From: Nannocystis bainbridge
GTDB lineage: Bacteria; Myxococcota_A; Polyangia; Nannocystales; Nannocystaceae
Length of the DNA stretch: 64,000 nt
Assembly (NCBI RefSeq): GCF_028368995.1
Contig: NZ_JAQNDL010000003.1
Span: 1,472,001-1,536,000, forward strand
Reading direction: 5' to 3'
The position numbers and the translations under genes were made by a program. Shown piece by piece: positions 351 to 61,636 of this stretch. The notes beneath the pieces are model-generated. The model searched no databases, had not been told where the DNA came from, and saw only the letters and a program-made list of their open reading frames with translations. Numbering within the stretch: the first letter of the stretch is position 1; each line of letters begins with the position of its first letter.

Positions 351-474
351 CCTCGGGACATGTCCGTTCGCGCATGTCCTGAAGACCCTCGAGAGACGGA
401 CCGCCACCGCATCGATCCGCCTCGGGACATGTCCGTTCGCGCATGTCCTGAAGACCCTCGAGAGACGGACCGCC
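351..474. repeat. Two exact 55-bp direct repeats (351-405, 420-474), each with a CATG-N10-CATG pair
   Basis: cctcgggacatgtccgttcgcgcatgtcctgaagaccctcgagagacggaccgcc occurs twice, period 69; CATG at 359/373 and 428/442; further pairs at 486/500 and 562/576. Confidence 0.9.
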
Positions 475-734
475 GCGTCGTTTCACATGTCCCGAAGGAC
501 ATCGACTTCGCCGCCGATCTCCGCGTGACCCGGCCGCTTTCCTCGCGCACCGCGATCACGACATGTCCTTCGAGACATCCCGCTGCCGCCCGTCGCCGCG
601 CGTGAGCCGGTGCGGGGCCGCGGGGCCGCGGCCCGCCCTGGCCCGTCCAGCCGCGAATCAGGCCCCTGCGGCCCGCCCATGCGGACGCCCGCGCCCTCGC
701 GGCCGCCTCGCAACTCGACTACGATGGCCGGGCG

Positions 735-1325
735 ATGGACACCCACCGCTTGCGCAACCTGACCTTCCTGATGTCGCTCGGCGGCCTCTCGGCCGCGTGC
801 TTCAGCGACAACGGCCCGCACGAGGGCGCCAGCGGGCCGGGTGACACCACCGGCGGCACCACCAGCGACCCCGGCACCACCGGCGACCCCGGCACCACCG
901 GCGACCCCGACACCACCACCACGACCTCCGGCGCCGACGAGACCACCGGCACCACCGCGCCCGCGACCGCCACCACCGGGCCCGACACCACCACCGACGC
1001 CGCCACCACCGACCTCGAGACCACCTCGACCACGGATCCCGGGCCCGACACCGTCGTGTGCATGCAATACGTCGCCACGTACATCGGCTGCTACCCGCGG
1101 CTGGTCCAGTACCTCGACGCGATGGTCACGGACTGCGAGATGGTCATCACCCAGGGCCACGAGATCGACGGCCCCATGTGCAGCGACACGTACGCGGAGC
1201 TCTACGCCTGCCTGGGGGCGCTCGACTGCCAGCAGCTCGCGTTCGAGTTCGAACACTCGTTCCACTGCGCGATCCAGCGCGAGCTGATCGACCAGTTCTG
1301 CCCGGAGACCGGCAAGGACTTCTGA
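735..1325 (+). CDS. Putative lipoprotein with Thr/Gly/Asp-rich linker and Cys-rich C-terminal domain
   Basis: Lipobox-like LSAAC, DPGTTG repeats, 8 Cys in the C-terminal domain. Confidence 0.75.
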   Translation: MDTHRLRNLTFLMSLGGLSAACFSDNGPHEGASGPGDTTGGTTSDPGTTGDPGTTGDPDTTTTTSGADETTGTTAPATATTGPDTTTDAATTDLETTSTTDPGPDTVVCMQYVATYIGCYPRLVQYLDAMVTDCEMVITQGHEIDGPMCSDTYAELYACLGALDCQQLAFEFEHSFHCAIQRELIDQFCPETGKDF

Positions 1326-1335
1326 GGCGCCACCC

Positions 1336-2181
1336 ATGCTGTTCGTCTCCGGCACCAAGCGCAGCGGCACCTCGATGTGGATGCAGGTCCTGCGGGCCGC
1401 CGGCTTCCCGGTGCTCGGCGAGGCCTTTCCGCGCGGCTTCACCGAGGCGCTCCACCAGGCCAACCCGGCCGGCTTCTTCGAGTCGATCCTCCGCCACGGG
1501 GTCTACTTCCGCACCAACCCCCACCCGGTCACCGGCGAGTACTTCCTGCCCGAGCAGGTCGAGGGCTACGTCGTCAAGGTGTTCGTGCCCGGCGTCATCC
1601 GCAGCGAGCGCGCCTACATCAGCCATCTCGTCGCCAACGTCCGCGAGTGGCGCGAGTACGAGGCCTCGGTCCTGCGCCTCTACCAGCTCGAGCGCGACGG
1701 CATGGCCGCGGCCGGCCAACCTGTCCCCGAGGACAGCGTCTACTTCCCGCCGGCCTACGAGTGGTGGATGGAGAACTTCGCCCTGGTCCGCGACATCAGC
1801 CTGCGCCGCTACCCGGCCCGCCTGATGACCTACGACCAGGTCCTCGACGACCCGGTCGGCACCCTCACCGGCGTGCTCGCCTGGCTCGGCCGCGGCGACC
1901 TGGCCGCGGCCCTGCCGACCATCCAGCCGGCCTATCGCACCCAGACCCGCCCGAGCTCCGACAGCGTCCCGCCCGCGCTGGCCCGCGTGTTCGACGACCT
2001 CTACGCCGGCGTCGCCGCCCAAAAACCATTCCCCGAGTCGCTGCTGCGCGACCTCAACGCGACCAACCGCGCGCTGCTGCCCGAGCTGACGGAGATCCAG
2101 CACCGCGTAGCCGTGGCCCAGTCGCGCTCGCCAAAAGGCCCGGCGCCGACCCGCCCCGCCGGCCTGCCCGACCTCGATTGA
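1336..2181 (+). CDS. Sulfotransferase-family (P-loop) protein
   Basis: N-terminal VSGTKRSGTSMWM PAPS-binding-loop-like motif; YDQVLDDP motif; 10 bp after the upstream gene. Confidence 0.65.
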   Translation: MLFVSGTKRSGTSMWMQVLRAAGFPVLGEAFPRGFTEALHQANPAGFFESILRHGVYFRTNPHPVTGEYFLPEQVEGYVVKVFVPGVIRSERAYISHLVANVREWREYEASVLRLYQLERDGMAAAGQPVPEDSVYFPPAYEWWMENFALVRDISLRRYPARLMTYDQVLDDPVGTLTGVLAWLGRGDLAAALPTIQPAYRTQTRPSSDSVPPALARVFDDLYAGVAAQKPFPESLLRDLNATNRALLPELTEIQHRVAVAQSRSPKGPAPTRPAGLPDLD

Positions 2182-2183: not shown

Positions 2184-2243
2184 CATGGCCGATCCGACAT
2201 GTCCATTTCGACATGTCGTCTTGACCATGCCCTTGAGGACATG
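2184..2243. repeat. 14-bp-phased CATG array (5 cores)
   Basis: CATG at 2184, 2198, 2212, 2226, 2240. Confidence 0.9.
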
Positions 2244-2369
2244 TCCGTTCCGCCACCTCGGCGACGCCCTCCGCCCGCGCGCCGGTGATGCTCGCCTTCG
2301 CGCATGTCTGCGCGCGGTCGAGGCCGGTTGCGGCCGCGCGCGACGGCGGTCAAGCTCGGTCCACCCTCG

Positions 2370-3244: not shown

Positions 3245-3304
3245 CGTGTACGAGAGAACATGTCGTATTCGACATGACCTCAGGGACATGTCCTCATGGC
3301 CATA
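3245..3304. repeat. 14-bp-phased CATG array
   Basis: cgtg 3245, CATG 3259, 3273, 3287, cata 3301. Confidence 0.85.
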
Positions 3305-12073: not shown

Positions 12074-12186
12074 CCCGGGCCAGGATGGCGCAGCCGCTCC
12101 GGACCGCCAGCCCGCCCGCCCAGCGCCCCCGCGGCCGCGCCTCGCCGCGACCGCCGTCAAACGGCGCAGGCCTCGCCACCCCGACC

Positions 12187-12554
12187 ACATGTCCCAGAGG
12201 ACATCTCACGGCCGCCGCCCCCGCCGCCCCGTCATATGTCCAGAAGGACATCTCACGCCCGCCGCCCGCGTCGCACTAAACATGTCCAAAAGGACATATC
12301 TCGACTCGCCACCCCGCGCCGCCCCTGAACATGTCCAAAAGGAAATCGCAGCTCGCCGCCCATGAACATGTCCCAAAGGACATGCAACGACTCGCCGCCC
12401 CGCATCGCGCTAAACATGTCTAGAAAGGACATATCACGGCTCGCCGCCCCGCGTCACCCCTAAACATGTCCAAAAGGACATATCATGGCTCACCGCCCGC
12501 GCCGTGCACCGGCCTCCCTCGCGCCTCGCCCATCCACATGTCTCGCTAGACATC
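12187..12554. repeat. Array of 8 palindromic ACATGTCC-N4-GGACAT units with C-rich spacers
   Basis: Units start at 12187, 12234, 12280, 12329, 12366, 12414, 12464, 12536 (periods 47, 46, 49, 37, 48, 50, 72). Confidence 0.9.
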
Positions 12555-12727: not shown

Positions 12728-15700
12728 ATGACCGAGCCTCGCCCCCACCTCGTCGGCGCGCGCGTCCTCGTCCGCGGCGAGCGATGGCTCGTGCGCGCCG
12801 TCCGGGTCACCGCGGCCGGCGGCGCCGAGCTCCACGTCACCGGCCTCTCCTCGCTCGTGCAGGGCCGCGACGCCGTCTTCCTCGACGACCTCGACGACCT
12901 CGAGCTCCTTCACTCCGGGTCCACCGACCTCGTCTCCCCTCATTCTGCCCCCGACCCCCAGCAACTCGGCCCCTGCGACCCCGAAGTCCTGCTCGATCAG
13001 CTCGCCCTCGACCAGCCGCGACCGCGGATTCGCGGCGCTCGCGACATCATCGAGCGGCTCGCCGACGAATGCATCCACTGGCACCGCTGCGCCGATCCGT
13101 CCGTCATCGACGCCCCGCACCTCGCCGACCGCCTCGCCCGCGAATGCGTCGTCTACCTCTACCGCCTGCTGTTCCTGTTCTACGTCGAGGCTCGCGGCCC
13201 CAGGCTGCAGGCCGAGCCCTGGTTCACCGATGCCTATCGCCGCGCTTATTCGCTCGAGGCCCTGCGTGACCTCGAGCTCGTACCCCTCGACGCCCCCGAG
13301 GCTTGCGACGGCCACTACCTCGACGCCTCGCTGAAGCTCCTGTTTCGCCTGGCCCAGCGCGGCTACCCCGGCTTCGCCCTCGCTGGCCTTCACGGCCAGC
13401 TGTTCGACGATACGCGCATTCCCTTGCTCACCGCCGCCCGGCTGCGGAATCACGTCCTCCAGGACGTCCTGCGGCGATTGTCCTTATCGCGTCCGCTCGG
13501 CAAGCGCCCGCCTGCGCGGATCTCCTACGCCCACCTCGGCATCCACCAGCTCGGCGCCGTCTACGAGGGCTTGCTCAGCTACACCGGCTTCCTCGCCCGC
13601 GAGGACGTGCACGAGGTCCGCGCCGCTGCCGACCTCGCTGACGACGACGCCCGCACCTGGTTCGTCGCTCCCGCCCAGCTCACCGACGACCCCGGGCACG
13701 CGCTCGTGCGCGACGCAGCCGGCCTCCCCCTCCTCCACCCGCGCGGCAAATTCCTCTACCGCCTCGCCGGCCGCGAGCGTGAGAAGAGCGCCTCCTATTA
13801 CACCCCCGAGCTGCTCACTCGCTGCCTCACCCGCCACACCCTCGCCGAGCGGCTCCCCGGGGCCCGCGCCGACGACATCCTGCAATGGACAATCTGCGAG
13901 CCCGCCATGGGCTCCGGCGCCTTCCTCCACGAGGCCGTCGAACAGCTCGCCGACGCCTACCTCGCGCGCAAACAGGCCGAGCTCGGGCGCACGATCGCCG
14001 CTGACCGGTACGCCCACGAGCGACAGCGCGTCAAACATCACCTCGTCGCTCGCAACTGCTACGGCGTCGACCTCGACCCGCTCGCCGCCGAGCTCGGCCG
14101 CGTCTCGCTGTGGCTGAGCGTCCGCCACGAAGGCGCCGCCCCGCCGAACCTGTCCTTGCGGACAGCCGTCGGAAACAGCCTGATCGGCGCCCGCCGGGCC
14201 GTCCTTCGCGCCGACGACCTCGCCCGCGGCCTCCGCTGTGAACCGGCCGCCGTGCCCCTCCACGAACCGCGGCCCGCTGGCGCCGTCTATCACTTCCTCC
14301 TCGCCGACCCCGGCATGGCCGGCTTCGACGACGACCGCGCCCTCAAGTCGCTCGCGCCCGCGGCCGTCGCCCGCATCAAGTCCTGGCGCCGGCAGCAGCT
14401 CGCCGCCGACACCGCGCGCGAGCTGCCGCGGCTGGCGGCGATCTGCGCCGGCATCGACCTCTTGTGGCGCGCCCACCTCGACGAGCGCCGCGCCGCCCTC
14501 GCCGCCGTCCGCCAGCCGCTCGCGCTGTGGGGTCAAACCGACGAACCTTCGCCCCCGCTCGATCCCGTCGCCGCCTGCGAAGCCCTCGCCCGCCCCGACG
14601 CCCCCGGCCGCAAGCTCGCCGCGATCCTCGATTACTGGTGCGCCCTGTGGTTCTGGCCCATCGACCAGGTCGAAGCATTGCCCGACCGCGGGCAATGGCT
14701 CGCCGACGTCGAGCACCTCCTCGCCACCGACGACCTCGATCGCCCGGGCGATCGCCCCGCCCTCGCCGTCACCCGCCGCGTCGCCGGCGAGCAGCGCTTC
14801 TTTCACTGGGAGGTCACCTTCCCCGAGGTGTTCGCCGCCGGCGGCATGGACATCATCCTCGGCAACCCGCCGTGGACCAAGGTCGTGTGGGAGGAGACCG
14901 GCGTGCTCGCCGACCTGCACCCACGCCTCGGCCAGGGCCGCGCCGCCGCGACCCTCTCGCAGGCCGAGCGCCAGCGCCTGCTCGCCGACCCACGCTCGCG
15001 CGGCCGCTACGAGCGCGAGCTGACCACCAGCCTCGGCACCCGCAATTTCCTGAGCAGCCGGCTCTACCCGCTGCTCGGCGGCACCGCCACCAACCTCTAC
15101 AAGGCCTTCCTCGTGCGCGCCTGGTCGCTCGCCGGCCCGCGCGCCGTCGTCGGCCTGTTCCATCAGACAGGCGTGTTCGACGACCCCGCCGGCGGCCCGC
15201 TGCGCGCCGAGCTGCACCACCGCCTGCGCCTCGCCGCCCGCTTCCAGAACAAGCTCATGCTGTTCCCGGAGGTCCTTCACACGCGCCCCTACGCCTTCAC
15301 GATCTGCGGCGACCGCCGCGACGTCCCGCGATTCCGCTACGTCGCCAACCTGCTGCACCCGCGCACGCTCGACGACAGCCTCGCCCACGACGGCAGCGGC
15401 GACGTGCCCGGCCTCAAGGGCGACGACGGCGCCTGGGACCTCCGCGGCCATCGCGACCGCGTCGTCGACGTCGACGCGGCCGCTCTGGCCCTGTTCCGCG
15501 CCGTGTTCGACGCACCCGACACGCCCCTCGCCGAGGCTCGCCTGCCGATCGTGCACGCCGGCGCGCTGCTGCCGATCCTCCTCAAGTTCGCCGCCGGCCC
15601 GCGGCGCATGCTCGACCTCGCCGACGCCTATACCACCAGCGAACATTTCCACGAGACCTATCAGCAGCAGGACGGCACCATCCGCCGCGTCACCTGCCGG

Positions 15701-16726
15701 CCCGAGCGCCTCGCCCAATGGATCGTGTCCGGCCCGCACTACTACGTGGCCACCCCGTTCGCGCGCGACCCCAACGCGGCCTGTCGCAGCCCCATGGACT
15801 ACACCACGATCGACCTCGCCGCGATCGCCCCCGACTATCTCCCGCGCACCAACTATCTGCCCGCCTGCGATCCCGCCACCTACGCGGCCCGCAGCCCGCG
15901 CTGGCACGAGACGCCCCTCGCCGCGCGTGCGCGCTGGATCGCCCGCAAGATGCTGTCGCCCTCCGGCGAGCGGACCTTGATCGGCGCCCTGCTCCCGCCC
16001 GGGCCGGCGCACATCGGCGCCAGCGTCAGCCTGGCCTGCCGCGACGACGCCACCACCGTGCATTTCGCCGGCCTGGCCGCCTCGCTGCCCTACGATTTCT
16101 GGCTCAAGATCACCGGCAAGTCGAACCTCAGCAACGACGTGGTCAAGTTCCTGCCGCTGCCCACGGCCTGGCGCTCCGAGATCGTCCTGCGCGCCTTATT
16201 GCTCAACTGCCTCACCGAGCCTTACGCGCCGCTGTGGCGTGACGCCTTCGTCGAAGCCTTTCGCGCCGACGGCTTCGCCAGCGCCGATCCACGATTGCCG
16301 TCCTTCGCCGCCCTCGGCCCGCGCTGGACCCCGGGCACCCCCCTGCGCACCCCGTTCGCGCGTCGGCAGGCGCTGGTCGAGCTCGACGCCCTCGCCGCCC
16401 TGGCCCTCGGGCTCACGCTGCCCGAGCTGCTGGCGATCTACCGCCTGCAATTCGCGGTGCTGCAGCAGAACGAGCGCGGCACCTGGTACGACCGGCGCGG
16501 CAAGGTCGTGTTCTCCGACAACGTGCTGCTCGCGGGGCTCGGCCTCGATCGCCGCCGGTGGCTGGCGATCGCCGACGCCGGCGCCGGCGAAGTCCTGCCT
16601 GTGTGGGCCCACGACGTTCAGGGCCCGTACCTCCCGCCGTTCGACCGCTGCGACCGCGAGGCCGACCTGCGCCGCGCCTACGCGCATTTCTCGGCGCGCC
16701 GCAGACCTGTCCCAGCGGACCTATGA
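12728..16726 (+). CDS. Large N6-adenine DNA methyltransferase (Eco57I/type IIG/DISARM DrmMI-like), apparently chimeric at the N-terminus
   Basis: YLYRLLFLFYVEAR, QLGAVYEGLL, SYYTPE, motif I CEPAMGSGAFL, YGVDLDP, motif IV GNPPW, then a TRD-like C-terminal half; ATG 12728 chosen. Confidence 0.85.
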   Translation: MTEPRPHLVGARVLVRGERWLVRAVRVTAAGGAELHVTGLSSLVQGRDAVFLDDLDDLELLHSGSTDLVSPHSAPDPQQLGPCDPEVLLDQLALDQPRPRIRGARDIIERLADECIHWHRCADPSVIDAPHLADRLARECVVYLYRLLFLFYVEARGPRLQAEPWFTDAYRRAYSLEALRDLELVPLDAPEACDGHYLDASLKLLFRLAQRGYPGFALAGLHGQLFDDTRIPLLTAARLRNHVLQDVLRRLSLSRPLGKRPPARISYAHLGIHQLGAVYEGLLSYTGFLAREDVHEVRAAADLADDDARTWFVAPAQLTDDPGHALVRDAAGLPLLHPRGKFLYRLAGREREKSASYYTPELLTRCLTRHTLAERLPGARADDILQWTICEPAMGSGAFLHEAVEQLADAYLARKQAELGRTIAADRYAHERQRVKHHLVARNCYGVDLDPLAAELGRVSLWLSVRHEGAAPPNLSLRTAVGNSLIGARRAVLRADDLARGLRCEPAAVPLHEPRPAGAVYHFLLADPGMAGFDDDRALKSLAPAAVARIKSWRRQQLAADTARELPRLAAICAGIDLLWRAHLDERRAALAAVRQPLALWGQTDEPSPPLDPVAACEALARPDAPGRKLAAILDYWCALWFWPIDQVEALPDRGQWLADVEHLLATDDLDRPGDRPALAVTRRVAGEQRFFHWEVTFPEVFAAGGMDIILGNPPWTKVVWEETGVLADLHPRLGQGRAAATLSQAERQRLLADPRSRGRYERELTTSLGTRNFLSSRLYPLLGGTATNLYKAFLVRAWSLAGPRAVVGLFHQTGVFDDPAGGPLRAELHHRLRLAARFQNKLMLFPEVLHTRPYAFTICGDRRDVPRFRYVANLLHPRTLDDSLAHDGSGDVPGLKGDDGAWDLRGHRDRVVDVDAAALALFRAVFDAPDTPLAEARLPIVHAGALLPILLKFAAGPRRMLDLADAYTTSEHFHETYQQQDGTIRRVTCRPERLAQWIVSGPHYYVATPFARDPNAACRSPMDYTTIDLAAIAPDYLPRTNYLPACDPATYAARSPRWHETPLAARARWIARKMLSPSGERTLIGALLPPGPAHIGASVSLACRDDATTVHFAGLAASLPYDFWLKITGKSNLSNDVVKFLPLPTAWRSEIVLRALLLNCLTEPYAPLWRDAFVEAFRADGFASADPRLPSFAALGPRWTPGTPLRTPFARRQALVELDALAALALGLTLPELLAIYRLQFAVLQQNERGTWYDRRGKVVFSDNVLLAGLGLDRRRWLAIADAGAGEVLPVWAHDVQGPYLPPFDRCDREADLRRAYAHFSARRRPVPADL

Positions 16727-19991: not shown

Positions 19992-21533
19992 ATGGAAATC
20001 GCAGCGAGCGTCACCCTCGGACTCTTGTTCCTGATCTCGGGCTTCGCGTCAGTGTTCCTGATGTTCAAGCTGTGGGGCTGGCCCGACGGACATCAACCGG
20101 GCATGGGCCAGGCGCCGCGGCACCTCGTGCGCCTCCACGACATCTTCAAGGTCATCTTCACCGCGCTCTACGTGGTGATGATGGCCGTGATGGTCCCGCG
20201 GCTGTGGAACTACCAGGTCGAGCTGCCGCCGCGCTCGGCCGTGCACGTCAGCCTCGGCTTCTTGCTGGGCGTGTTGCTGCTGGTCGAGCTCGCGTTCTAC
20301 AAGCTGTTCCGCCACCTGCAGTCCTGGGTCCCGGCGCTGGCCACCGCGACGCTCGGCTGCTCCGTGCTGCTGCTCGGCCTGTCGGTCCCGAGCGCCCTGC
20401 GCGAGTACGGCCTGGCGCGCGGCCAGGTCGGCGGCGGCGTCTACAGCGTCGAGAACCGGGCCCGCGTCGCCCGCCTGCTGCCGCAGGCCGAGATGCCCGC
20501 CGACGCCCCGCTGGCCGACCTCACCACCGTCGACGCCCTGCGCCACGGCCGGGAGATCCTCGCCACCAAGTGCGTCGTCTGTCACGACCTCAAGACCGTC
20601 CTCGTCCAGCCGCGCTCGCCCGCCGGCTGGTGGCGCACCGTCGAGCGCATGGCCGACAAGCCGATGTTCGAGGACCCGATGACCGAGCGCGAGCTCTACG
20701 ACGTCACCGCCTACCTGGTCGCCATCACCGGCGACCTGCAGAAATCGGCCCGCCAGCAGCGCGAGCAGAAGCTCAAGCAGCAGCAGGCGATCGCCCCCGT
20801 CGACCCGGCCGCCCCGGCGCCGACCTACGACGCCTCCGCCGCGCAAAAAGCGTTCGAGACCCGCTGCGCCGAGTGCCACGACCTCGCCGAGGTCGACAAG
20901 AAGCCGCCCACCTCCGCCCGCGAGGTCAAGGAGGTCATCGAGCGCATGGTCGCCGACAACGGCATGACCGCCCCCGCGGCCGAGCTCGACCTCTGCTACG
21001 CCTTCATGATCCGCAAGTACGCGCCGAACGAGGTCGCCACCGCGCCCGCGACTCTCGGCGCGGCCGTCGGCGCCGACGTCGCGGCCGCCGTGGCCGTGGC
21101 CAGCGCCCCGCCTGTCCCCGCGGACAGCAAGCCTGTCCCCGCGGACAGCAAGCCTGTCCCCGCGGACAGCCCGCCGCCCGCCGCCGATCCGGACGTCATC
21201 GTCGACGACGACACCCCGCCGGCCAAGGCCCCGACGCCCGCGCCCGCCGCCCCCGCCAAGCCCAAGCCGGCCCCCAAGGCGATCGACGCCCGCGGCCTCT
21301 ACGTCAAGCACTGCGCCGCCTGCCACGACGTCAGCGGCAAGGGCAAGCCGGGCCTCAAGAGCAAGGGCATCCCGGACATGACCGACAAGAACTGGCAGAA
21401 GAAGAACGGCAAGGGCGCGGTCGCCAAGGCGATCAAGGTCGGCATCCCCGGCACGATGATGAAAGCCTTCGCCGCCAAGCTGAAGCCCGAAGAGGTCGAC
21501 GCCGTCGCCGCCTTCGTCAAGAAGATGCGCTGA
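19992..21533 (+). CDS. Membrane-anchored tri-heme c-type cytochrome
   Basis: Four N-terminal TM helices with His; CVVCH, CAECH and CAACH heme motifs; Pro/Ala linker before the last domain. Confidence 0.85.
   Translation: MEIAASVTLGLLFLISGFASVFLMFKLWGWPDGHQPGMGQAPRHLVRLHDIFKVIFTALYVVMMAVMVPRLWNYQVELPPRSAVHVSLGFLLGVLLLVELAFYKLFRHLQSWVPALATATLGCSVLLLGLSVPSALREYGLARGQVGGGVYSVENRARVARLLPQAEMPADAPLADLTTVDALRHGREILATKCVVCHDLKTVLVQPRSPAGWWRTVERMADKPMFEDPMTERELYDVTAYLVAITGDLQKSARQQREQKLKQQQAIAPVDPAAPAPTYDASAAQKAFETRCAECHDLAEVDKKPPTSAREVKEVIERMVADNGMTAPAAELDLCYAFMIRKYAPNEVATAPATLGAAVGADVAAAVAVASAPPVPADSKPVPADSKPVPADSPPPAADPDVIVDDDTPPAKAPTPAPAAPAKPKPAPKAIDARGLYVKHCAACHDVSGKGKPGLKSKGIPDMTDKNWQKKNGKGAVAKAIKVGIPGTMMKAFAAKLKPEEVDAVAAFVKKMR
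21111..21170 (+). repeat. In-frame 21-bp tandem repeat x3 (PVPADSK), each a CTGTCC-N4-GGACAG palindrome
   Basis: cctgtccccgcggacagcaag at 21111, 21132, 21153 (third copy partial). Confidence 0.9.
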
Positions 21534-26081: not shown

Positions 26082-26099
26082 CCTGTCCTCAAGGACAGG
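26082..26099. repeat. Perfect inverted repeat, variant of the 14-bp site family
   Basis: cctgtcct-ca-aggacagg between convergent genes. Confidence 0.7.
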
Positions 26100-27518: not shown

Positions 27519-27532
27519 CGCGCGCCGCTCTG

Positions 27533-29981: not shown

Positions 29982-29998
29982 CGCGCCCGCCAAGCACA

Positions 29999-33052: not shown

Positions 33053-35524
33053 ATGGCAACCTGGGCTGCGATGGACAGCTCCCCGACGCCGGCTCCGCGG
33101 ACCTATCCCGCGTGGCCCATCCATATCGAGGCCGGCTCCGACTACCTCGGCGAGGTGATCGACGGCCGCTACCGGATCCTCGAGCGCCTCGCCGTGGGCG
33201 GCATGGCCCACGTGTTCCTCGCCAAGGACTTGACCCGTCGCTGCCACGTGGCGCTCAAGCTCCTGCACCGGACCGGCCCGGAGTCGCGGCGGCGCTTCGA
33301 GGACGAGGCCGAGGTCCTCAGCAACATCCGCCACCCGCACATCGTCCGGACGCTCGCGTTCGGCCACACCCTCGACGCCCGGCCGTACATGGCGCTCGAG
33401 CACCTCGAGGGCGAATCACTGTCGCAGCGGCTCGCTCGCGGCCCTCTGCCGTGGCGCGAGGTCGCCGAGTTCGGCGCCCAGATCGCCGGAGCCCTGCACG
33501 CATTGCACCGCGCGGGCGTGGTGCATCGCGACGTCAAGCCCGACAACATCATGATCGCCCACGACGCCGGTCGGCCCGTCGCCAAGGTCATCGATCTCGG
33601 CCTCGCAAGCGTCGGCACTCCGTTCCACGAGGTCCAGGACGCCCGCTTCGCCTCACAGGTGCCCGAGCGCCACAAGACCGAGCTCGGTCGCGCGATCGGT
33701 ACCCCCGCATACCTCCCACCCGAAGCCGGTCTGCGCCCCGCCGAGCCGCGCCTCGACGTCTACTCGCTCGGCGCCACGCTCTATCTGCTGTGCACGGGGA
33801 TCTTGCCCGATCCGTCCGACCTCTCGCCGATCGCCGAGGTCTGTCCCGACAGCGACGCCCCTGACGACCTCTCGCGCTTGCTGCTCGCCGCGCTCGATCG
33901 CGAAGTCACCGAGCGCCTCCCTTCCGCCGATCACCTGCGGCGCGGGCTCGACGCGATCCTCGCCGCGCACCCCCAGACCTCGCGGCCGCTGTTCGGCGGT
34001 TGTTACGATCGCCTCGAGGTCATCGGCATCGGCGCCAGCGCCGTCGTCTACCGCGCCTCCGATCGTGCGCTGTCGCGGGAGGTCGCGCTCAAGGTCCTGC
34101 GCGCCGCCAGCCCGAGCGAGGACGATGCGCTCCGCTTTCGCCGCGCCGCCAAGATCCTGTCCGCGCTGCGCCACCCGAACATCCCGCAGATCCACCATTT
34201 CGGCGTCCATCCCGGCGATCCCGCCCGGGACGAAGGTCAGCGCTTCGCGGTGATGGAGCTGTGCCCCGGCTCGCCCGCGTCGCAATTCACCCGGCCTGAC
34301 CGGCACCTGCGACCCGACGAGGTGATCGCGGTGGGCCACCAGCTCGCGAGCGCCCTCGAAACCGTGCACGCGGCCGGCCTCGTCTACCGCGACCTCCACG
34401 TCGGCAACGTCCTGATCGCGCGCGGCGATCCGCCGCAAGCCTGGATCTTCGACTTCGATCAGGCGCAGGTGTCGCCCGAGTTCTACGCCCGCGTGACGGA
34501 GCGCTGGGCCACGCCCCCCGAAGATCGCATCGAACCAGCCCGCGAAAAGCCCTTGCAGCGCATGGACTACGCGCCGCCCGAGGTGCGCGCCGGGGCAGCC
34601 TTCACCACCGCGAGCGACGTGTTCGCGCTGGGCCTCCTGCTCTACCGCCTGCTCACCGGGCTGCGCCCGTTCCCACCCGCAGCCAGCGAGGCGACACCCG
34701 CCCGCAAGGTCTGCCGCGGCTGCCCCCCCGGCCTCGAGCATCTTCTGAAAAAGATGCTGCACGCGGACCCACGAGAGCGCCCGACGCTCGCGTGGGTGCA
34801 GACCAGCCTCGAGGACGAGCAGGCCGAGCTCGACGCCGAGCGCGAAGCGGAGCGCGAGGAGGCGGCCGCCAGCGCGTCCCCTCCCGCGACCGCGAGCCCG
34901 CCCGAGCCCGCAGCGGAGCCCGCTCCCCCGCGCGTCGCCGCGACGAACGCCCTCGGCCCAGCCCCGGCATCCGTCACCGCCCCACCGCGAAGGCTCGCCC
35001 GCCTCGCGCTCGTCCTGTTCGCAACGCTCGGCCTCGCCGCCGCCGGGTGGTGGTTCCGACCCGCCTCGCCCGCGCGCGAGCAGGTCCCCGCGACGCCAGT
35101 CACTCCCCCCGCCGTTCACGCCCATGACAATGTCCCCACGGACATGTCTCATAGAACACATGATTCCGCGCTCGACCCCCTACCCGTTCCACCGCCCATG
35201 CTCGCCCCGACCGCCGCGCCTATTGTCGAGACCCCGCACGAAACCGCCGCCACGACGCGCCCCACGCGTCCGCGCAAGCAGGACCCCGTGGCCGCCTGGG
35301 AGGCCCGCATGCGTAAAGTGGAGGCCCGCGCGCGCCGCTGCCTCGCCGCAGCCCGCACCGAGCCTCGCCGCGTCGTCGTGACCTGGACGCCCGGCGCGCC
35401 CGCCGAGTTCGGCGGCGTCTCGTCCGGCTCGGTCCACGCGCAATGTCTCCGCGACGCGCTCGCCGGCCTCGACCTCCACGACCTCCGCCGCCGCCACACC
35501 TTCTTCGAAGAGAAGCAGCCTTGA
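33053..35524 (+). CDS. Tandem (two-domain) Ser/Thr protein kinase with one TM helix
   Basis: Domain 1: GGMAHVF, HRDVKPDN, DLG, GTPAYLPPE. Domain 2: GIGASAVVY, YRDLHVGN, DFD, YAPPE. TM LALVLFATLGLAAAGWWF. Confidence 0.88.
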   Translation: MATWAAMDSSPTPAPRTYPAWPIHIEAGSDYLGEVIDGRYRILERLAVGGMAHVFLAKDLTRRCHVALKLLHRTGPESRRRFEDEAEVLSNIRHPHIVRTLAFGHTLDARPYMALEHLEGESLSQRLARGPLPWREVAEFGAQIAGALHALHRAGVVHRDVKPDNIMIAHDAGRPVAKVIDLGLASVGTPFHEVQDARFASQVPERHKTELGRAIGTPAYLPPEAGLRPAEPRLDVYSLGATLYLLCTGILPDPSDLSPIAEVCPDSDAPDDLSRLLLAALDREVTERLPSADHLRRGLDAILAAHPQTSRPLFGGCYDRLEVIGIGASAVVYRASDRALSREVALKVLRAASPSEDDALRFRRAAKILSALRHPNIPQIHHFGVHPGDPARDEGQRFAVMELCPGSPASQFTRPDRHLRPDEVIAVGHQLASALETVHAAGLVYRDLHVGNVLIARGDPPQAWIFDFDQAQVSPEFYARVTERWATPPEDRIEPAREKPLQRMDYAPPEVRAGAAFTTASDVFALGLLLYRLLTGLRPFPPAASEATPARKVCRGCPPGLEHLLKKMLHADPRERPTLAWVQTSLEDEQAELDAEREAEREEAAASASPPATASPPEPAAEPAPPRVAATNALGPAPASVTAPPRRLARLALVLFATLGLAAAGWWFRPASPAREQVPATPVTPPAVHAHDNVPTDMSHRTHDSALDPLPVPPPMLAPTAAPIVETPHETAATTRPTRPRKQDPVAAWEARMRKVEARARRCLAAARTEPRRVVVTWTPGAPAEFGGVSSGSVHAQCLRDALAGLDLHDLRRRHTFFEEKQP

Positions 35525-42564: not shown

Positions 42565-42850
42565 GGCGAGCCACGCTAGCAGACGCGGTCGCACCTCCTC
42601 AAGCCGCGCGAATTCGCCGCTGCGCACCCGACGATACGCCTGCAAGCGCCGGAGGCCCGGGCACGCCCCCGCAGTCCCGCGGCGTCGCCGACGCCACCCG
42701 CATCACCGCCGCGCCACGCACCGGCAGCGCCAGCAAAATCACATGTCCGAAGAGACATCCGCTCGACATCGCCGCCGGCACCGGGCCGTGACATCGAAGT
42801 CGTGGAGACACGCACTGGCAGCGCCCGCGGCTGTCGTGCATCCTGCGAGC

Positions 42851-51954: not shown

Positions 51955-54663
51955 TCACCCCGCGCGGGCCTGCGGCCGGAGCTGCGACAGCTGCTGCTCG
52001 ACCTCCGCGAATTCCTGCGCGCGATCCGGGTCGCGCTTCAGCAGCGCCCGCGCCTGCTCGAGCGCCACCCTCGCGGCTCCTACCTCGCCGGTGCCCTGCA
52101 GCGCCAGCGCCTTGTTGCGCAGCACCAGCAGCAGCAATTCTTCGCCGGGCTCTCCGGCCGCGCGCGCCACCGGCTCCGCCGCCGCGAACCGCTGCAGCGC
52201 CTCCGGATGGCGCTGCAGCGCCACCAAGCTCTCGCCGAGGTTGCTCTCGGTGATCGCGCGGTGCAGATGTCCCTCGGGCAACACGCGCTCTTGCAGCCGC
52301 AGCGCCTCCGCGTAGGCCGGCACCGCCCCGCTGAAGTCCCCGCGCCAGTGCAGCACCGCCCCCAGGTTGACCAGCGCCGCTGCCAGATCGGGGTGCTCCG
52401 CCGGCAGCACCTGGCGGTAGATCGCCAGCGCCTGGCGGGCGTGGTGCTCGGCCCGACCGAGCTCCCCCGTCGCGCTCGCCTGGCCCATCAGCGACGCGTG
52501 GGCCCGCCCGCACTCGACGCAGCTCGCCCCGTACGTCTCGCTCCAGATCGCCAGCGCCTCCTCGAGCAGCGCCCGCGCCCGCGCCTGCTCGCCGCCCTCG
52601 AGCAGCAGCACCGCGAGGTCGTGAGACACCCGCGCGCGCTGGGGATGACGCGGGCCGAGCTGCTCCGCGCACAGCCCCTGCGCCTCGACCAGCCGCGCCT
52701 CGGCCTCGTCGCGGCGGCCCAGCAGCGCCAGCGCGTTACCCAGGCTCTGCAGCGAGCGGATCAGCTCGAGCGTCGGCCCCTCGCTGAAGCGCAGCCGCGC
52801 GTACGCCTCGCGGTGCAGGCCGACCGCCTCGGCGAAGCGACCCTCGGCCGCGGCCGCCACCCCGAGCGCGTTGAGCAGCGTGGCTCGCCGCGGCCCCTCG
52901 TCGCCCAGCCGATCGAGCAGCGCCTGGGCCCGGCGCGCGCGCTCGTGCATGCGCTCGGGGCTCACGCGCAGGCGCGCGGCCACTGTCGCCAGCGCGACCC
53001 ATCCGCTCGCCGTGATGTCGTCGAGCCCGTGCGCCTCGGCGACATCGATCGCCGCCAGCAGGCGCGTCTCGGCCGCCACGATCTCGCCGTCCTCCGCGCG
53101 CAGGCGGCCCGCCGTCAGCAACGCGTCGGCCGCGAGCGCCGGCTCGTCGAGCCCCTGCGCCCGCGCCCCCACCTGCTCCGCCAGCCGCAGGCCCTCGCGC
53201 CGGTCACCCGCCGCCGCCTGCGCCCGCGCGGCGATCAACGCCCGCCGCAGCTCGTCGCGGACGCCTGACTTTTCGGACATGTCCCTTGCGACATTGGCGG
53301 CTTGCGCCTTGCAGCCGGCGATCGGCGGCAGCGCCTGGACCACCGCCATCGCCTGCTCCGCGTCCGCCCCGCCCGCGAACGCCAGCACCTCGGCCGCGCG
53401 CCCCAGCCCCTCCGCCGCCTGCCCGAGGCAATCGAGCTGCGCGTGCAGCTGCGCCGCCGCGCTCGCCGACAGCGCCGTCGTCGCCTCGCAGGCCCGCAGG
53501 CGCGCCTGCTGCCATTCGTCGGCGTACGCGTCGAGCGCGAGCGCGACGCGCCGCCCAGCCGCGCGCGCGTACTCGCCGGGCCCCGCGAAGCTGGCCTCCA
53601 GGGCCGCGCGCTGCGGATCGCCCCACGCGCGATCGATGCGCTGGATCGCCGCCTCGCACGAGGCCGCCCGCGGCTTGCCGCCGTCCGACGCCATCAGCCC
53701 CGCGAAGCCCCCGATCACCACCAGCGCCGCCGCCAGGCCGACCCGACGCCACCACCGCCCCGGGTCGCGCCCCAGCGCGGCGATCAGCGGCTCGAGCGAC
53801 GCGTAGCGCTGGCTCGCCGCCGGCGCCAGCCCGCGCGCCAGCGCTCGATCGATGCGCCGCGGCACCTCGCGTCTGCGCGTCGCCGTCGCCTCCGGCTTCG
53901 ACCCCGGGCGCTGCCCGTGCAGCGCCTCGTGGAGCGACACGCAGAAGCTGTAGATGTCGCTGCGCACGTCCGGCGGCCGGCCGGCGCGCTGCTCCGGCGC
54001 CATGTAGGCCGGCGTCCCGACCACCGCCCCGGTCCGCGTCAGCGGTGAATCGGACGACAGCGACAGCGCCGGCGAAGCCCCCTCGACGCCGCCCTCCAGC
54101 GCCACGCCGGTCGGCCGCGCCAGCCCGAAGTCGACCACGTACACGCGCTCGTCGTCGCCGACCAGCACGTTCTCGGCCTTGAAGTCGCGGTGCACCAGGC
54201 CGGCCGCGTGGGCCGCTTGCAGCCCGCGCGCCGCCGCCACGTACTTGGCGACCGTGGCCCGCCACGTCCGCGGCCGCTCGCGCTGCCAGGCCCGCAGCGT
54301 CTGCCCGTGGATCCGCGCCATCACGATGTAGATCTGGCCGCGGAACTGCCCGATCTCGTGGATCTCCACCACGTTCGGGTGACGCACCTGCGCCAGCAGC
54401 CGGGCCTCGCGCAGCAGCCGGCTCTCGAGCGAGCCGGGGCCGTCCACCCGCGCCAGCTTGATCGCCACCTCGCGCCCGAGCATCGGGTCGTGCGCCGCCC
54501 ACACCGTCCCCATGCCGCCGGCGCCGATGCGTCCGAGCACGCGATAGCGGCCGATCGCCAGCAGCTCCGACGAGTCGGAGCACGGCTCGCTCGGCGGTCG
54601 CCCCGACGCGTCGATCGTGTCGAGCTCGACGAGCGGCTTGCTCTCGCGGGTGGTCGTCTCCAC
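51955..54663 (-). CDS. Ser/Thr protein kinase with TM helix and TPR repeats
   Basis: [32 protein letters not shown]; multiple TPRs ([12 protein letters not shown]). Confidence 0.92.
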
Positions 54664-55217: not shown

Positions 55218-55352
55218 TCGCGGACCTGCGATGATTCCGCGGATCGCACTGCGGCGATTCGCGGAATCTTCACATGGCCTTTTGAACATGTCTACGAAGA
55301 CAGCCTGCGTCATGCAATAGAACGTCGCGCCGCGGGGTTCTCTCGCTCCCGC

Positions 55353-56182: not shown

Positions 56183-56228
56183 AATGTCTTCAAGGACATG
56201 CCCTTCACGACATGTCCTTGGCGACATC
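56183..56228. repeat. 14-bp-phased CATG array
   Basis: aatg 56183, CATG 56197, 56211, catc 56225. Confidence 0.85.
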
Positions 56229-58581: not shown

Positions 58582-59045
58582 ACCTTGTCTCCTTGTTGTT
58601 CGCGGATCGGGACGAAAGGACGCGGGGCCGCGAATCGCGAGCGCAGGACCACCGAAGTCCCGCCGCCCGCCCGCGGCACGAAGCGAGCATCGTCGACGAG
58701 GTGGCGGATCAGGAACACGCCGCGTCCGTCGGGCCGCAGCCGCCGCGCCGGCTCGCGTGGGTCCGCGAGCCGGGCGGCGTCGAAGCCCTCGCCGCGGTCC
58801 TCGACCCGCACGACGAGCTGACCGTCGCGCGCCTCCGCGGTGAGCGTCACCGATTTATCGGGGTCTTCGCGGTTGCCGTGCACGATCGCGTTGGCCACCG
58901 CCTCGCGCACCGCGAGGTCGATGCTCCACTGCGTCTCGGCGTCGACGCCCGCGCTCCGCATGAACTCGCCCAGCGGCTGCTGGACGGCCTCCACGCTGCG
59001 CCTGCGGCTGGCGAGGGTCAGCTGAATGGAAGGACCTGCTGCCAC
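58578..59045 (-). CDS. Anti-sigma factor Ser kinase (RsbW/SpoIIAB-like HATPase)
   Basis: EAVANAIVHGN, VEDRGEGFD, GRGVFLI; stop overlaps the antagonist start. Confidence 0.88.
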   Translation of the reverse strand: MAAGPSIQLTLASRRRSVEAVQQPLGEFMRSAGVDAETQWSIDLAVREAVANAIVHGNREDPDKSVTLTAEARDGQLVVRVEDRGEGFDAARLADPREPARRLRPDGRGVFLIRHLVDDARFVPRAGGGTSVVLRSRFAAPRPFVPIREQQGDKV

Positions 59046-59541
59046 GGGCCGCCAACCCTAGCATGGCCCACCACGCCCGCCACGCGCATGAATGCGCCGC
59101 CGCTCTCTTCCTTTCATGATGGTCGCGGCTCGGGCAATCGTCCGCTCGCCCACCGCTGATTCGCTGACATCGCGCGCGACATGGCCTTTGCGAGCGAAGG
59201 TCCGCTTCGCCCTCGCTCGAAATCATGAGAGCACGGCCGAGCCCGGTAGCACCCAACCCTGCCACACGAGTTCGCAGGGTTCAGATCCGTCGCGCGAAGC
59301 GGGTTCGTGCGCATCGAGCCTCACGGGCGAGCGGCGCACCGATGGCGACGCGAGGGTAGATCTCGCAGCACAGGGCCGAGGCCCCGGCGAGCGCCCACCA
59401 CGCCGCCCGCCCGCGCACGGCCGACGACCCCACGCACTCGCTCGCGAGGACGCCGAGGCGCTTCGACTCGCGCGGTCATCGCGGGCCGCGGCTGGCCGAT
59501 CGGTCGCACAGCCCCACCGTCCTCGACTATTCTGTTCGCGC

Positions 59542-61341
59542 ATGCCGAAGGCGCAGCGGCTCGCGGGGCTCGTGTCGTCGACCCTGCTGGCGTGCGCGCC
59601 GGAGCTGCCGCGAAGCGTGCAGCCGAGCGGTCGCAGCGGCGCCGAGCCCTGGCCCGACATCGCCGCTCCGATGCCGGCCCGGCGAGACAGTCGGGGCGAC
59701 GCCGCCCTGATCGTCAGCATCGAGGACTACAGCCAGCTGCCCGACCGCCCCGGCGCCCACGCCGTCGCCGGCGCGTGGTACCGCTATTTGTGGCAGACCC
59801 GCGGCCTGCGGCCCGCGCGGATCTCCTGGCTGCGCGACCGCCAGGCCGGCGGCGACTCGCTGCGCAAGGCCCTCCAGCAGGCCCACGGGAGGGTCGGCAA
59901 GGACGCCACGTTATGGGTCGTGTTCGTCGGCCACGCCGCGACGGCCGCGGGCGACGCTCACGGGATCTTGCTGGACCCGGACGCCAGCGCCGGTCGCTGG
60001 CGCGGCACGCCGGTGCGCGGCTTGCTCGCGCTCGCGGGCCACGGCCTGCACCGGCGCCTGATCGCCGTGCTCGATGGCTGCCTGCCCGAAGGGACAGGTG
60101 ACGCCGCGCGCTCCGGGCTGACCGCCTCGGGCCTGCCCGCGCTCGCGCCGTGGGCCGGGCTGGCCCCGCGTTCGCACGACCCCATGCGCGGGTCGGGCCT
60201 CGGAGCCATGCTCGCCGAGACCAGGGACCGGGTCGCGCTCGACATGGCCCGCCGCGGCCGCGAGCCGGCCGACGCGGTCGTGTTCACCGCCGGGGCCGGG
60301 CCCGCCTGCCGCGAGGACCTGCCCGGCGCCGACACCCCCGCGCTGTCGTACCTGCTGCTCGGCGGCCTGCGCGGGTGGGCCGACATCAGCGGCGACGGTC
60401 GGGTCAGCGCGAGCGAGGCGCACCGCCACGTCGACCTGCTCCTTCGGACAGGTTATCACGGCAGCCCGGCCACACCGCGGCCGCAGGCGCGCGGCGTCGA
60501 GTTCACCCTCGCTCACGACGCGCGCGAGCGCGGCCCCACGATCGCCGGCGTGTTGCCGCTCGACGAGACCATCGACGAGCGCGCCCTGGCGGCCGAAGCC
60601 GGGGCCCTGTTCGTCGCCGAGCCGATGCTGAAGATCGATCGCGGGCGCTTCACCCTCGGCTGCCGCAGCCGACGCGACCGCGCCTGCGAGGCCGACGAAC
60701 GGCCGGCCTCGCGGGTCTTCCTCGACAGCTTCGCCATCGACGAGCACGAGGTCACGTGGCGCGACTACGCCGCCTGCGTCGCCGCGGGCGGTTGCGAGAA
60801 GATCGCCGTGCATCGCTGCGAGGTGTGGACCGGCGACGCGTTCGTGCGCGGCGCCCCGCTGGCCGACGCATTCATGCGCGAGGATCACCCGGTCGTGTGC
60901 GCGACCTGGGCCCAGGCCGCGGCGTTCTGCGCCTGGCGCGACAAGCGGCTGCCGACCGAGGCCGAGTGGGAACGCGCCGCCCGCGGCCCCGACGACCGCC
61001 ACGAATACCCGTGGGGCGACGCGCCGCCGACCTGCCAGCGGGCCCAGACGCACGAATGCGGCCCCACCACCGCGCCGGTCGGCAGCCACCCCGCCGGCCG
61101 CAGCCCCGACGGCGTGCACGACCTCGCTGGCAACGCCTCGGAGTGGGTCGCCGATTGGTACCACCCCCGGGCCTACGCCCGCAGTCACGGCCACAACCCC
61201 GCCGGCCCCGACCGCGGCGAGGTCCGGGTCGTGCGCGGCGGCAGCTTCTACGACGGCCCCGGCTACCTGCGCGTGTCCTATCGCTACGGCCTCAGCCCGC
61301 AATGGGGCTACGGCACCGTCGGCTTCCGCTGCGCGCGCTGA
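59542..61341 (+). CDS. Lipoprotein with caspase-like domain and FGE-sulfatase (SUMF1) domain
   Basis: ALIVSIEDY, VFVGH, LDGC; then EVT..DY, PVVCATW..A..FC, RLPTEAEWERAARG, DLAGNASEW, RGGSF, GFRCA. Confidence 0.8.
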   Translation: MPKAQRLAGLVSSTLLACAPELPRSVQPSGRSGAEPWPDIAAPMPARRDSRGDAALIVSIEDYSQLPDRPGAHAVAGAWYRYLWQTRGLRPARISWLRDRQAGGDSLRKALQQAHGRVGKDATLWVVFVGHAATAAGDAHGILLDPDASAGRWRGTPVRGLLALAGHGLHRRLIAVLDGCLPEGTGDAARSGLTASGLPALAPWAGLAPRSHDPMRGSGLGAMLAETRDRVALDMARRGREPADAVVFTAGAGPACREDLPGADTPALSYLLLGGLRGWADISGDGRVSASEAHRHVDLLLRTGYHGSPATPRPQARGVEFTLAHDARERGPTIAGVLPLDETIDERALAAEAGALFVAEPMLKIDRGRFTLGCRSRRDRACEADERPASRVFLDSFAIDEHEVTWRDYAACVAAGGCEKIAVHRCEVWTGDAFVRGAPLADAFMREDHPVVCATWAQAAAFCAWRDKRLPTEAEWERAARGPDDRHEYPWGDAPPTCQRAQTHECGPTTAPVGSHPAGRSPDGVHDLAGNASEWVADWYHPRAYARSHGHNPAGPDRGEVRVVRGGSFYDGPGYLRVSYRYGLSPQWGYGTVGFRCAR

Positions 61342-61636
61342 TATCACATGTCCCACGGGACATGTCGCCCGCGCAGTGATACGCTCCCGACGCTCTTTTT
61401 AGCGGTTATCGAGCATCGGGAGAACCTTCGAGTTCGCGGCGCCTCGCCGGGACATAGGGACCTCGCGCGGAGCGCCTGCCATCGTCCGTGAAGCACCGGC
61501 CCGGCGCGGCATACCCCGCGCCCGAAAAATGGCCAGTCACGCAATTTCGGTGGTCGTGGCCCCGCTGCGGGTTCGCTCGTCACCGGGGTCCAGGCCGGGG
61601 AGCGGGCCCGCAGCGGGGCGAGGGGAATCACGGCAG

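Follow-up and report, generated by a model that had tools for sequence, protein, structure and literature searches.

The genome of the soil myxobacterium Nannocystis carries thousands of copies of a short interrupted palindrome, TGTCC-N4-GGACA, referred to here as the dyad. It was recognised in a 64-kb stretch of contig C2 (C2:1472001-1536000, the window) and was then followed through the whole genome (11.05 Mb, 71.5% G+C, 5 contigs, 90.5% complete). The word is kept frequent both within and between genes, is constrained between species, and is limited to Nannocystis and, thinly, to two sister genera. Behind genes the dyads abut one another in arrays with a strict 14-bp phase. The reading proposed here, held tentatively at a probability of about 0.4, is that a symmetric protein reads TGTCC-N4-GGACA on DNA and that its phase-locked stacks plausibly serve as marks or insulators where transcription units end.

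An earlier note on the window had described clusters of CATG cores with a strict 14-bp spacing, conserved flanks and a variable 4-base spacer, and these features hold genome-wide. CATG-to-CATG distances number 3736 at 14 bp, 2073 at 28 bp and 1586 at 42 bp, followed by 751 at 56 bp, 383 at 70 bp and 391 at 84 bp, against about 70-300 at other distances. A logo of the 3736 pairs reads GGACATG(T/C)CC and then four uninformative bases, and units of this description are visible by eye in the window sequence at 300-640, 27450-27700 and 29900-30200. Among units with at most one mismatch, the nearest neighbour lies at 14 bp in 1619 cases, at 13 bp in 15 and at 15 bp in 2. The register given in the earlier note, GGACATGTCC plus N4, has to be shifted. 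The exact palindrome TGTCC-N4-GGACA occurs 1987 times in the genome against 3 for its reversed control (~660-fold), and the same arms at spacers N0-N3 and N5-N13 occur 0-16 times each (in-frame controls: N1 = 0, N7 = 2, N10 = 11). There are 4258 dyads with one mismatch (reversed control 201) and 7530 with two (reversed control 3382); at up to one mismatch the density is about 1 per 1.8 kb. The dyad is taken as the unit because 1145 of the 1987 exact copies (58%) are solo, with no half-site recognisable on either flank; among the 956 exact GGACATGTCC units, just 196 have no half-site beside them. CATG marks the place where two dyads abut or belongs to an extended arm, and the 14-bp phase is that of abutting dyads. 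A single CATGTCC-N4-GGACATG dyad alone puts two CATGs 14 bp apart, and most of the two-core clusters formerly counted as pairs of units are the two extended arms of one such dyad. In solo dyads the consensus extends to R-C-(C 0.62/A 0.33)-TGTCC-N4-GGACA-(G 0.55/T 0.37)-(G/C)-Y. The word is thus a perfect interrupted palindrome, not an asymmetric or oriented one as known uptake sequences are.

Abutment of dyads is exact. Pairs with at most one mismatch in each member number 485 at 14 bp and 0, 0, 0 and 2 at 12, 13, 15 and 16 bp. When units with up to two mismatches are chained in 14- or 28-bp steps, the genome yields 2611 arrays of two or more units; arrays of 2, 3, 4, 5, 6, 7, 8, 9 and 11 units number 1568, 369, 304, 243, 88, 32, 4, 2 and 1. 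Chaining at control steps of 11-17 bp gives 103-305 doublets and almost nothing longer. The arrays total 101,094 bp, or 0.9% of the genome. They are not simple slippage copies, since just 90 of 1722 pairs of neighbouring spacers are identical (5.2% vs 1.2% at random).

Genes, too, are enriched in the dyad. The interior sequence of 3022 array-free genes of 900 nt or longer (4.38 Mb) contains 224 exact dyads, whereas 10 synonymous-codon shuffles contain 6.0 on average (range 2-9), an excess of 37-fold. Called genes as a whole hold 742 dyads in 8.7 Mb and the remaining 2.3 Mb hold about 1245, so that the density per base is roughly 6 times lower in genes; the coding copies are distributed over the three codon phases as 419, 234 and 89. 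A 14-bp insertion would break the reading frame, and therefore the in-gene copies must have arisen by substitution. A sample of 20 open reading frames (ORFs) with an interior solo dyad and strong codon-phase G+C on both sides was compared with Pfam. The dyad lies within the matched domain in 10 of them (SelO, EamA, SSF, AMP-binding, adenylosuccinate synthetase, peptidase S13, AstB, VWA, EutB and TPR), and three have no Pfam match. Three in-gene dyads are built from rare A/T-ending codons (ACA, TGT, GGA, GAT); all ten of their arm bases are kept in the related genomes G001 and G010 (6 of 6 comparisons), while nearby codons differ. In a separate observation, the Pfam match of a NadA-like ORF (C5:123673-125118) ends at residue 318, at profile position 221 of 295, with a dyad at residue 321 that may mark an insertion or domain break.

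Conservation was measured against relatives that are different species, at 81-96% identity. From these, 69 of 221 exact dyads align to the source genome. Identity in the 69 alignments is 93.3% in the arms, 79.3% in the N4 centre, 83.3% in the near flanks and 86.2% in the far flanks. All ten arm bases are kept in 46 of the 69, against 24-29 at six shifted control offsets, and mean arm mismatches are 0.67 against 1.34 for the shifted controls (paired Wilcoxon p = 9e-6). By this measure the arms change about half as fast as adjacent, mostly coding, sequence.

The lineage profile of the word is sharp. Ten other Nannocystis genomes hold 114-2090 exact dyads (reversed controls 1-6), the low counts belonging to incomplete assemblies of 4.5-6.9 Mb. 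The sister genus g2 holds 87, 121, 169 and 149 in four genomes (controls 2-10) and the sister genus g4 161, 87 and 67 in three (controls 1-4), which makes both about 10-fold sparser than Nannocystis (7 of 7 genomes, 67-169). Counts are 1-7 in the other 12 genera of the family and 0-8 in 16 genomes of other families (28 genomes). In the two sister genera, which carry 9-19 dyads per Mb, the gaps between the copies listed range from kilobases to hundreds of kilobases, most being in the tens, and samples of 166 kb (G011) and 99 kb (G013) gave no 14-bp signal. A different "dialect" in these genera was considered by means of a 7-mer self-distance profile and a ranking of 5-Nx-5 palindromes and was set aside, as the same two samples contain no phased or iterated word. 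The exact two-unit pattern was found in 78 stretches among 185,579 species genomes: 64 in Nannocystis, 11 in entries labelled Nannocystaceae or Myxococcales bacterium, and 3 singletons elsewhere. The exact three-unit pattern has no match among the genome_contigs records. Viral contigs (one contig with one doublet) were uninformative, as were, with respect to arrays, contigs from four soil-metagenome runs on window positions 12000-31900, which gave short fragments only. The distribution is read as a word that would have come first, in three genera, and arrays that would have been added later, in Nannocystis.

Where do the arrays lie relative to genes? The earlier note had placed the clusters between convergent, divergent and tandem genes alike, which does not hold genome-wide. 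With a crude gene caller based on G+C at third codon positions (6700 genes, 79% coding), and in approximate fractions, arrays of at least two units occupy 600 of 1186 convergent (51%), 576 of 2967 tandem (19%) and 89 of 1019 divergent (9%) intergenic regions; for arrays of at least three units the counts are 405, 266 and 22 of the same totals. Most of the 18 "divergent" arrays of at least three units that were listed adjoin gaps longer than 600 nt, a sign that the crude caller may have missed genes there. The stop codon closest to an array in a convergent region is at a median distance of 12 nt. Between tandem genes the medians are 58 nt past the upstream stop and 232 nt before the next start, and 71% of these arrays are closer to the upstream gene's stop codon. 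The stop codon often falls within the degenerate first unit, as in TGACATGTCC. An array lies within 70 nt at 985 of the 4333 gene ends that have at least 70 nt of downstream spacer. The arrays thus share the location of repetitive extragenic palindromes (REPs) and the bacterial interspersed mosaic elements (BIMEs) that they form, namely regular clusters in 3' untranslated or intercistronic DNA. The clusters had also been described as not simply operators or terminators; given the strong tie to gene 3' ends, position does not exclude a terminator or REP-like role.

How could one protein account for both solo dyads and arrays? The proposed reader would be a two-fold symmetric protein with one subunit on each arm, the arm centres lying 9 bp apart and N4 forming an uncontacted centre. 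The extended half-site is R-C-(C/A)-TGTCC, and in the unconstrained DNA behind stop codons dyads would accumulate head-to-tail. The outer ACA/TGT of the extended half-site already starts a neighbouring half-site, and therefore new dyads would lock in only at 14 bp. Free N4 centres together with this locking would explain why the phase is strict although the spacers are unrelated. On an array of 2-11 dyads the dimers would form a helical stack, each turned by 120 degrees per 14 bp. At the ends of transcription units, and most strongly between converging genes, such stacks might act as a roadblock, a terminator aid or a supercoil barrier. Solo dyads in genes may be bound by the same reader at low occupancy or may serve as a self-DNA tag like HIP1 or the DNA uptake sequences (DUS). 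The chromosome-wide, protein-read site system that the earlier note had put forward by analogy with HIP1 and DUS is favoured by the independence of the arms, the enrichment in genes and the conservation of arms between species. A broader version, in which a HIP1-like word was turned into a gene-end device, about half of converging gene pairs received a putative boundary built of protein, serving in termination, insulation or supercoiling, and the word is ancestral in three genera, is considered doubtful.

Several observations weigh against the protein-bound boundary. A roadblock site that is enriched inside genes is awkward for a boundary role. Searches of the source genome and of genes flanked by dyads found no reader protein. 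At third codon positions only, arms (145/166) and flanks (1261/1502) do not differ significantly, and the constraint on the arms could come from conversion or repair drive rather than function. The fractions by gene context are approximate because the gene caller is crude. The sequences also fold well as RNA: the 70 nt after stop codons with arrays fold about 10 kcal/mol below shuffles, and the arrays of the window reach folding z-scores of -2.3 to -6.0. Stem extension is weakly hinted at by two-unit arrays, whose two flanks are reverse complements of each other in 3.6% of cases (1.0% at random). Conserved arms without covariation would also be expected if a protein recognised the sequence of the folded hairpin.

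These last points bear on an explanation that is judged unlikely: the arrays may be REP/BIME-like structured repeats, forming hairpins in the 3' end of mRNA or in single-stranded DNA, and may be functional or tolerated. Neighbouring units would pair into 10-bp stems with 4-nt loops that stop read-through from one converging gene into the other or shield transcripts from 3' exonucleases; alternatively, a hairpin-specific enzyme resembling Ssn or the REP-associated tyrosine transposases (RAYTs) would recognise and spread the units. Presence in half of convergent regions, closeness to stop codons and the predicted folding speak for it. Gene ends without arrays fold only 2.3 kcal/mol below shuffles, and because they show so little excess structure the arrays are the main structured element at 3' ends. 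Sense-strand mismatches favour G.U (909) over A.C (703), and the Ssn nuclease of Neisseria with its NTS/dRS3 repeats, as outlined in PMC11893778, offers a precedent.

Against hairpins stands the behaviour of the bases that would have to pair. Positions -1 and +14 of the 1145 solo dyads prefer C/A and G/T, respectively, yet form Watson-Crick pairs in 48.3% of cases where 46.8% is expected; (-1,+14) do not covary, and neither do (-2,+15) or (-3,+16). A deviant base is compensated in the next unit in 20.9% of cases and in a non-pairing unit 28 bp off in 19.6% (random 12.7%), so that compensation is not specific to pairing. The asymmetry of mismatches mostly follows replication GC skew: 2695 of 4204 G.T-type mismatches between neighbouring units (64%) lie on the G-rich replication strand. 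With replication strand allowed for, the sense strand is still favoured by about 1.4:1 (568:191 vs 512:341), a residue that could come from transcription-linked mutation, and A.C remains common on the sense strand. The arrays of the window read ACATGCCC on the + strand because the region is C-rich on that strand. Selection for tetraloops was considered and rejected, since the spacers show no dominance of GNRA or UUCG. A solo dyad allows only a 5-bp stem; more than half of the exact dyads are solo, and coding DNA contains hundreds of them. T-tracts are absent after the arrays: TTTT occurs within the next 15 nt in 2.4% of 675 tandem-context arrays against 3.0% for AAAA. With no T enrichment downstream, the arrays lack the U-tract that follows the G+C-rich hairpin of an intrinsic (Rho-independent) terminator. 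A conserved structured RNA was not found either, the Rfam gathering scan of the window giving only a tRNA and the dyads showing no pairing covariation. Array flanks hold no conserved sequence beyond degenerate in-phase units, and hence the arrays are not part of a larger miniature inverted-repeat transposable element. Together, the results favour recognition of each arm as sequence.

The search for a cognate enzyme or reader was directed at several families. A REP with its own RAYT had been named earlier as an identity that would overturn the proposal; RAYT (PF01797) has 0 matches in the source genome, a search that was positive in 6 of 14 control genomes. Vsr (PF03852) has 0 matches in the source genome and in 3 of 3 Nannocystis genomes sampled; its matches in the family, in 2 genomes out of 41, fall in genera that lack the word. 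GIY-YIG (PF01541) gave two matches only, in open frames of 523 and 1264 aa that are UvrC-like as judged by size only, and no small gene of the Ssn type was found in the source genome. The N6/N4 DNA methylase gene of the window, which has an exact dyad before its start codon and an array past its stop, was considered as the reader and rejected: close orthologues were found in the source genome and in one of three sampled Nannocystis genomes, genera that lack the word have distant homologues, and the 5' dyad is present only in the source genome and G010 of six genomes. A 60%-identical paralogue of this methylase on C4, and its counterpart in G005, each carry one in-frame TAG. Dyads lie on both sides of 65 genes, of which the 20 smallest were compared with Pfam. 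These candidates were also set aside, as they belong to unrelated families and include nothing compelling (pyrophosphatase, NUDIX, ExbD, isochorismatase, ferritin, ABC, nitrilase, S-adenosylmethionine-dependent methyltransferase, one TetR-family regulator and others).

A less probable proposal is that the word is a self-DNA tag for uptake or recombination, comparable to HIP1, DUS or the uptake signal sequences (USS). A surface or periplasmic receptor, or a recombination- or restriction-like system, would prefer DNA with the word, and biased uptake together with recombination would spread it through genes and let it pile up where sequence is free. The enrichment through synonymous choice in coding DNA, the conservation between species, the spacing of about one copy in 1.8 kb and the concentration behind genes are consistent with such a tag, as is a genus-specific word that is thin in two sister genera, which resembles the dialects of uptake sequences. 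HIP1 itself has been reported to raise natural transformation (bioRxiv 10.1101/2024.09.10.611283, in outline). The proposal has no need of exact 14-bp abutment or of arrays of up to 11 units, and the several-fold lower density per base within genes also counts against it, as does the symmetry of the dyad; known uptake sequences are oriented and non-palindromic.

Equally improbable is the absence of any function, with repair or gene-conversion drive or methylation-linked mutation bias making the word and slippage expanding harmless copies. Arrays do turn over fast. At the 29996 locus an array is present in all five relatives, with 6 (window), 3, 6, 5 and about 7 units and differing spacers; one relative has a 13-bp step, similarity decays away from one edge, although identity in the flanking genes is 84-96%. 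Synteny breaks coincide with many arrays, and only 7 of 63 arrays from relatives have both flanks collinear in the source genome, five of these 7 rows being one single locus. Identical spacers within arrays are 4 times more frequent than at random, arrays avoid promoters as harmless passengers would, and their variants follow mutational GC skew. Slippage followed by neutral decay, however, is hard to square with 95% of neighbouring spacers differing while phase errors (13 or 15 bp) number 17 against 1619, nor would it slow the arms to half the rate of adjacent, mostly coding, sequence; the missing Vsr is a further point against a repair drive. Two specific routes were examined and rejected. 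Excision footprints or target duplications are not indicated, as the flanks of two-unit arrays are identical in 0.7%, not above random, and template switching is not indicated by adjacent spacers, which are reverse-complementary in 1.5% against 1.0% at random.

The copies in the window are collected in the table below. Independent scans recovered 26 of the 29 clusters that the earlier note had listed; the other three are degenerate single dyads, which could be decayed copies or chance.

Table 1. Dyads, arrays and associated features of the window (positions as in the 64-kb stretch; mismatches are relative to TGTCC-N4-GGACA).
Position	Feature	Strand	Context and remarks
347..448	Duplicated segment, two copies ~69 bp apart		Each copy GGACATGTCC-GTTC-GCGCATGTCC, one dyad plus flanking half-sites; first copy begins 9 nt 3' of called stop codon
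488..501	Single exact dyad TGTCC-CGAA-GGACA		Earlier listed as pair 486/500
564..577	Single dyad, 1 mismatch		Earlier listed as pair 562/576
1722..1735	Exact solo dyad		Within called ORF 1336-2181 (+)
2186..2255	Array, 4-5 abutting dyads		Between tandem genes; begins 5 nt past called stop
3247..3302	Array, 4 dyads		Convergent intergenic region
3915/3929	Degenerate single dyad, 2-3 mismatches		Earlier cluster, not recovered
12174..12504	Higher-order tandem repeat, 47-49 bp period, ~6.9 copies		One dyad per copy, five exact
14151..14164	Exact solo dyad CCTGTCC-TTGC-GGACAGC		Within called ORF
16708..16721	Single dyad, 1 mismatch		
19031-19104	tRNA gene	+	Rfam gathering scan, 72.6 bits
19177..19323	Three dyad clusters (19177-19204, 19222-19235, 19297-19323)		Directly 3' of tRNA gene
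21110..21170	Perfect 21-bp tandem repeat, 2.9 copies		Within called ORF 19908-21533; each copy exact CCTGTCC-CCGC-GGACAGC
26084..26097	Exact dyad		8 nt past called stop
27530..27604	Array, 5-6 units		Between convergent genes, 17 and 19 nt from their stop codons
28611..28624	Exact solo dyad		Divergent region, 52 nt before called start codon (28677) of DNA methylase
28677-29981	N6/N4 DNA methylase gene	+	PF01555, E = 1.5e-35
29996..30084	Array, 6-7 units		Between convergent genes
32754/32768	Degenerate single dyad, 2-3 mismatches		Earlier cluster, not recovered
35131..35158	Two abutting dyads (0 and 2 mismatches)		Within called ORF
42744..42757	Single dyad, 1 mismatch		Within called ORF
46647..46660	Exact dyad		Convergent intergenic region
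46766/46780	Degenerate single dyad, 2-3 mismatches		Earlier cluster, not recovered
49495..49508	Single dyad, 1 mismatch		Between tandem genes
53266..53293	Two abutting dyads		Within called ORF on - strand
55275..55302	Two degenerate abutting dyads		58 nt past called stop
56185..56226	Array, 3 dyads		Convergent region, 17 nt past stop codon
58212..58225	Single dyad, 1 mismatch		20 nt from end of - strand gene
61349..61362	Exact dyad		Convergent region, 8 nt past called stop

Some of these loci could be compared with relatives. The repeat at 12174..12504 is not in 14-bp phase, and each of its copies also holds a G+C-rich block. The repeat is placed upstream of two ORFs that appear to diverge, and G005 and G007 have 3.9-4.1 kb at this place. 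Dyads like that at 16708 (CATGTCC-N4-GGAC.T.TGATCA) adjoin one another's orthologous flanks in G005, G007 and G010. Two coding-context dyads of G010 and G007 keep their arms in G005, G007 and the window, with CCTC, CCGC and CCAC centres, and have one arm mismatch in G001. At 27519-27626, the site of the 27530 array, four relatives have 3.7-4.0 kb of extra DNA, and the flanks in G005 are not collinear. The window also contains tandem repeats of other kinds. Those of 93/186 bp at 41799-42295 and 57200-57551 (2.5-4.6 copies, 73-78% matches, GTCGTCGCA/GCACGC-rich) probably encode repeat modules of two large proteins, and a 21/42/63-bp repeat at 5917-6087 (CAGCTCCTCGTT...) is probably a heptad-type coding repeat on the opposite strand.

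Across the genome some 100-kb bins hold 2-3 dyads against a mean of 18, for example bins 5, 11, 12 and 18 of C1 and bin 18 of C2. Replication GC skew is otherwise strong (about +/-0.07-0.10), with a switch of sign on C3 near 1.5 Mb; of the bins named, C1 bins 11-12 have almost no skew, C2 bin 18 has a weak one (-0.015), and C1 bins 5 and 18 have an ordinary one. The dyad-poor bins may be acquired islands or giant biosynthetic clusters.

The element appears to be undescribed, as the earlier note had supposed. Literature searches gave no description of it, and "Satellites in the prokaryote world" does not mention myxobacteria; the lists of repeat-rich genomes in the Ssn paper might bear on novelty. 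Hyper-abundant palindromic words such as HIP1 have been unexplained for decades, and Nannocystis offers an independent case in a cultivable soil myxobacterium. The case is a clean one, with a defined 5-N4-5 dyad, a sharp profile by genus (dense in one, thin in two, background in 12) and derived, phase-locked arrays. With this profile of presence and absence, the reader protein should be findable by phylogenetic profiling or by pull-down. Arrays at gene ends offer phenotypes that can be tested, including read-through, supercoiling and transformation. Nannocystis produces natural products, and annotation and engineering of its genome have to reckon with arrays that take up almost one hundredth of it, at gene ends and at many synteny breaks.

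Several known systems share some properties of the dyad. REP/BIME elements are palindromic units in regular arrays in transcribed, untranslated DNA at gene ends, amounting to about 1% of a genome; a REP is a 20-40-nt hairpin with imperfect pairing, is by definition extragenic and is associated with RAYT transposases. The dyad arrays are like them in being clustered at gene ends and in their share of the genome (0.9%). They differ in that the 14-bp dyad, with arms of 5-8 nt, is enriched in genes too, that phase is exact and linkers are variable, and that RAYT was not found. DUS and USS are asymmetric, oriented words of 9-12 nt that occur about once per kb, within genes, in genus-level dialects; they also form inverted pairs behind genes, and pairs of Neisseria DUS lie in terminators. 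The dyad resembles them as a genus-level word found within and behind genes, but is symmetric and forms phased arrays, and we know of no phased arrays of uptake sequences. FNR-type boxes have the same 14-bp, 5-N4-5 geometry, and the metboxes of MetJ are tandem palindromes in fixed phase that are bound cooperatively, an arrangement like that of the arrays. Such operators are few and lie at promoters, whereas dyads number in the thousands, lie at gene ends and in genes, and avoid divergent promoter regions.

Two further systems come closer. HIP1 (GCGATCGC) is a palindrome of cyanobacteria, over-represented 15- to 300-fold within and between genes; according to the summary in PMC5861425 its conservation between species has been put forward as a sign of selection, and its function is unknown, a role in nucleoid structure having been proposed. 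HIP1 has been tied to orphan methyltransferases in the abstract of PMC4390886, and the transformation effect mentioned above was reported in a cyanobacterium. Like HIP1, the dyad is a hyper-abundant palindromic word, coding and non-coding, that is conserved between species (~660-fold overall; 37-fold in genes). Unlike HIP1, a contiguous 8-mer of cyanobacteria, it is interrupted as 5-N4-5 and belongs to Myxococcota; no methyltransferase has been tied to it (one methylase, PF01555, was examined), and the HIP1 abstracts mention neither phase-locked gene-end arrays nor a comparable 3' bias. The dyad word behaves like HIP1 and is not a member of the HIP1 family. The dRS3/NTS repeat of Neisseria (ATTCCC-N8-GGGAAT), whose cognate nuclease Ssn was found through an association of gene and repeat, is, as far as outlined in PMC11893778, likewise an interrupted palindrome with a variable centre that is lineage-restricted and present in many copies (hundreds) clustered around genes. 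It differs in being 6-N8-6 rather than 5-N4-5 and in the oriented, non-palindromic flanks of NTS, and its reader is a small GIY-YIG single-strand nuclease encoded by a gene flanked by repeats, whereas only large-frame GIY-YIG matches occur here. HIP1 is the nearest analogue of the dyad in behaviour, and dRS3/NTS with Ssn the nearest in architecture.

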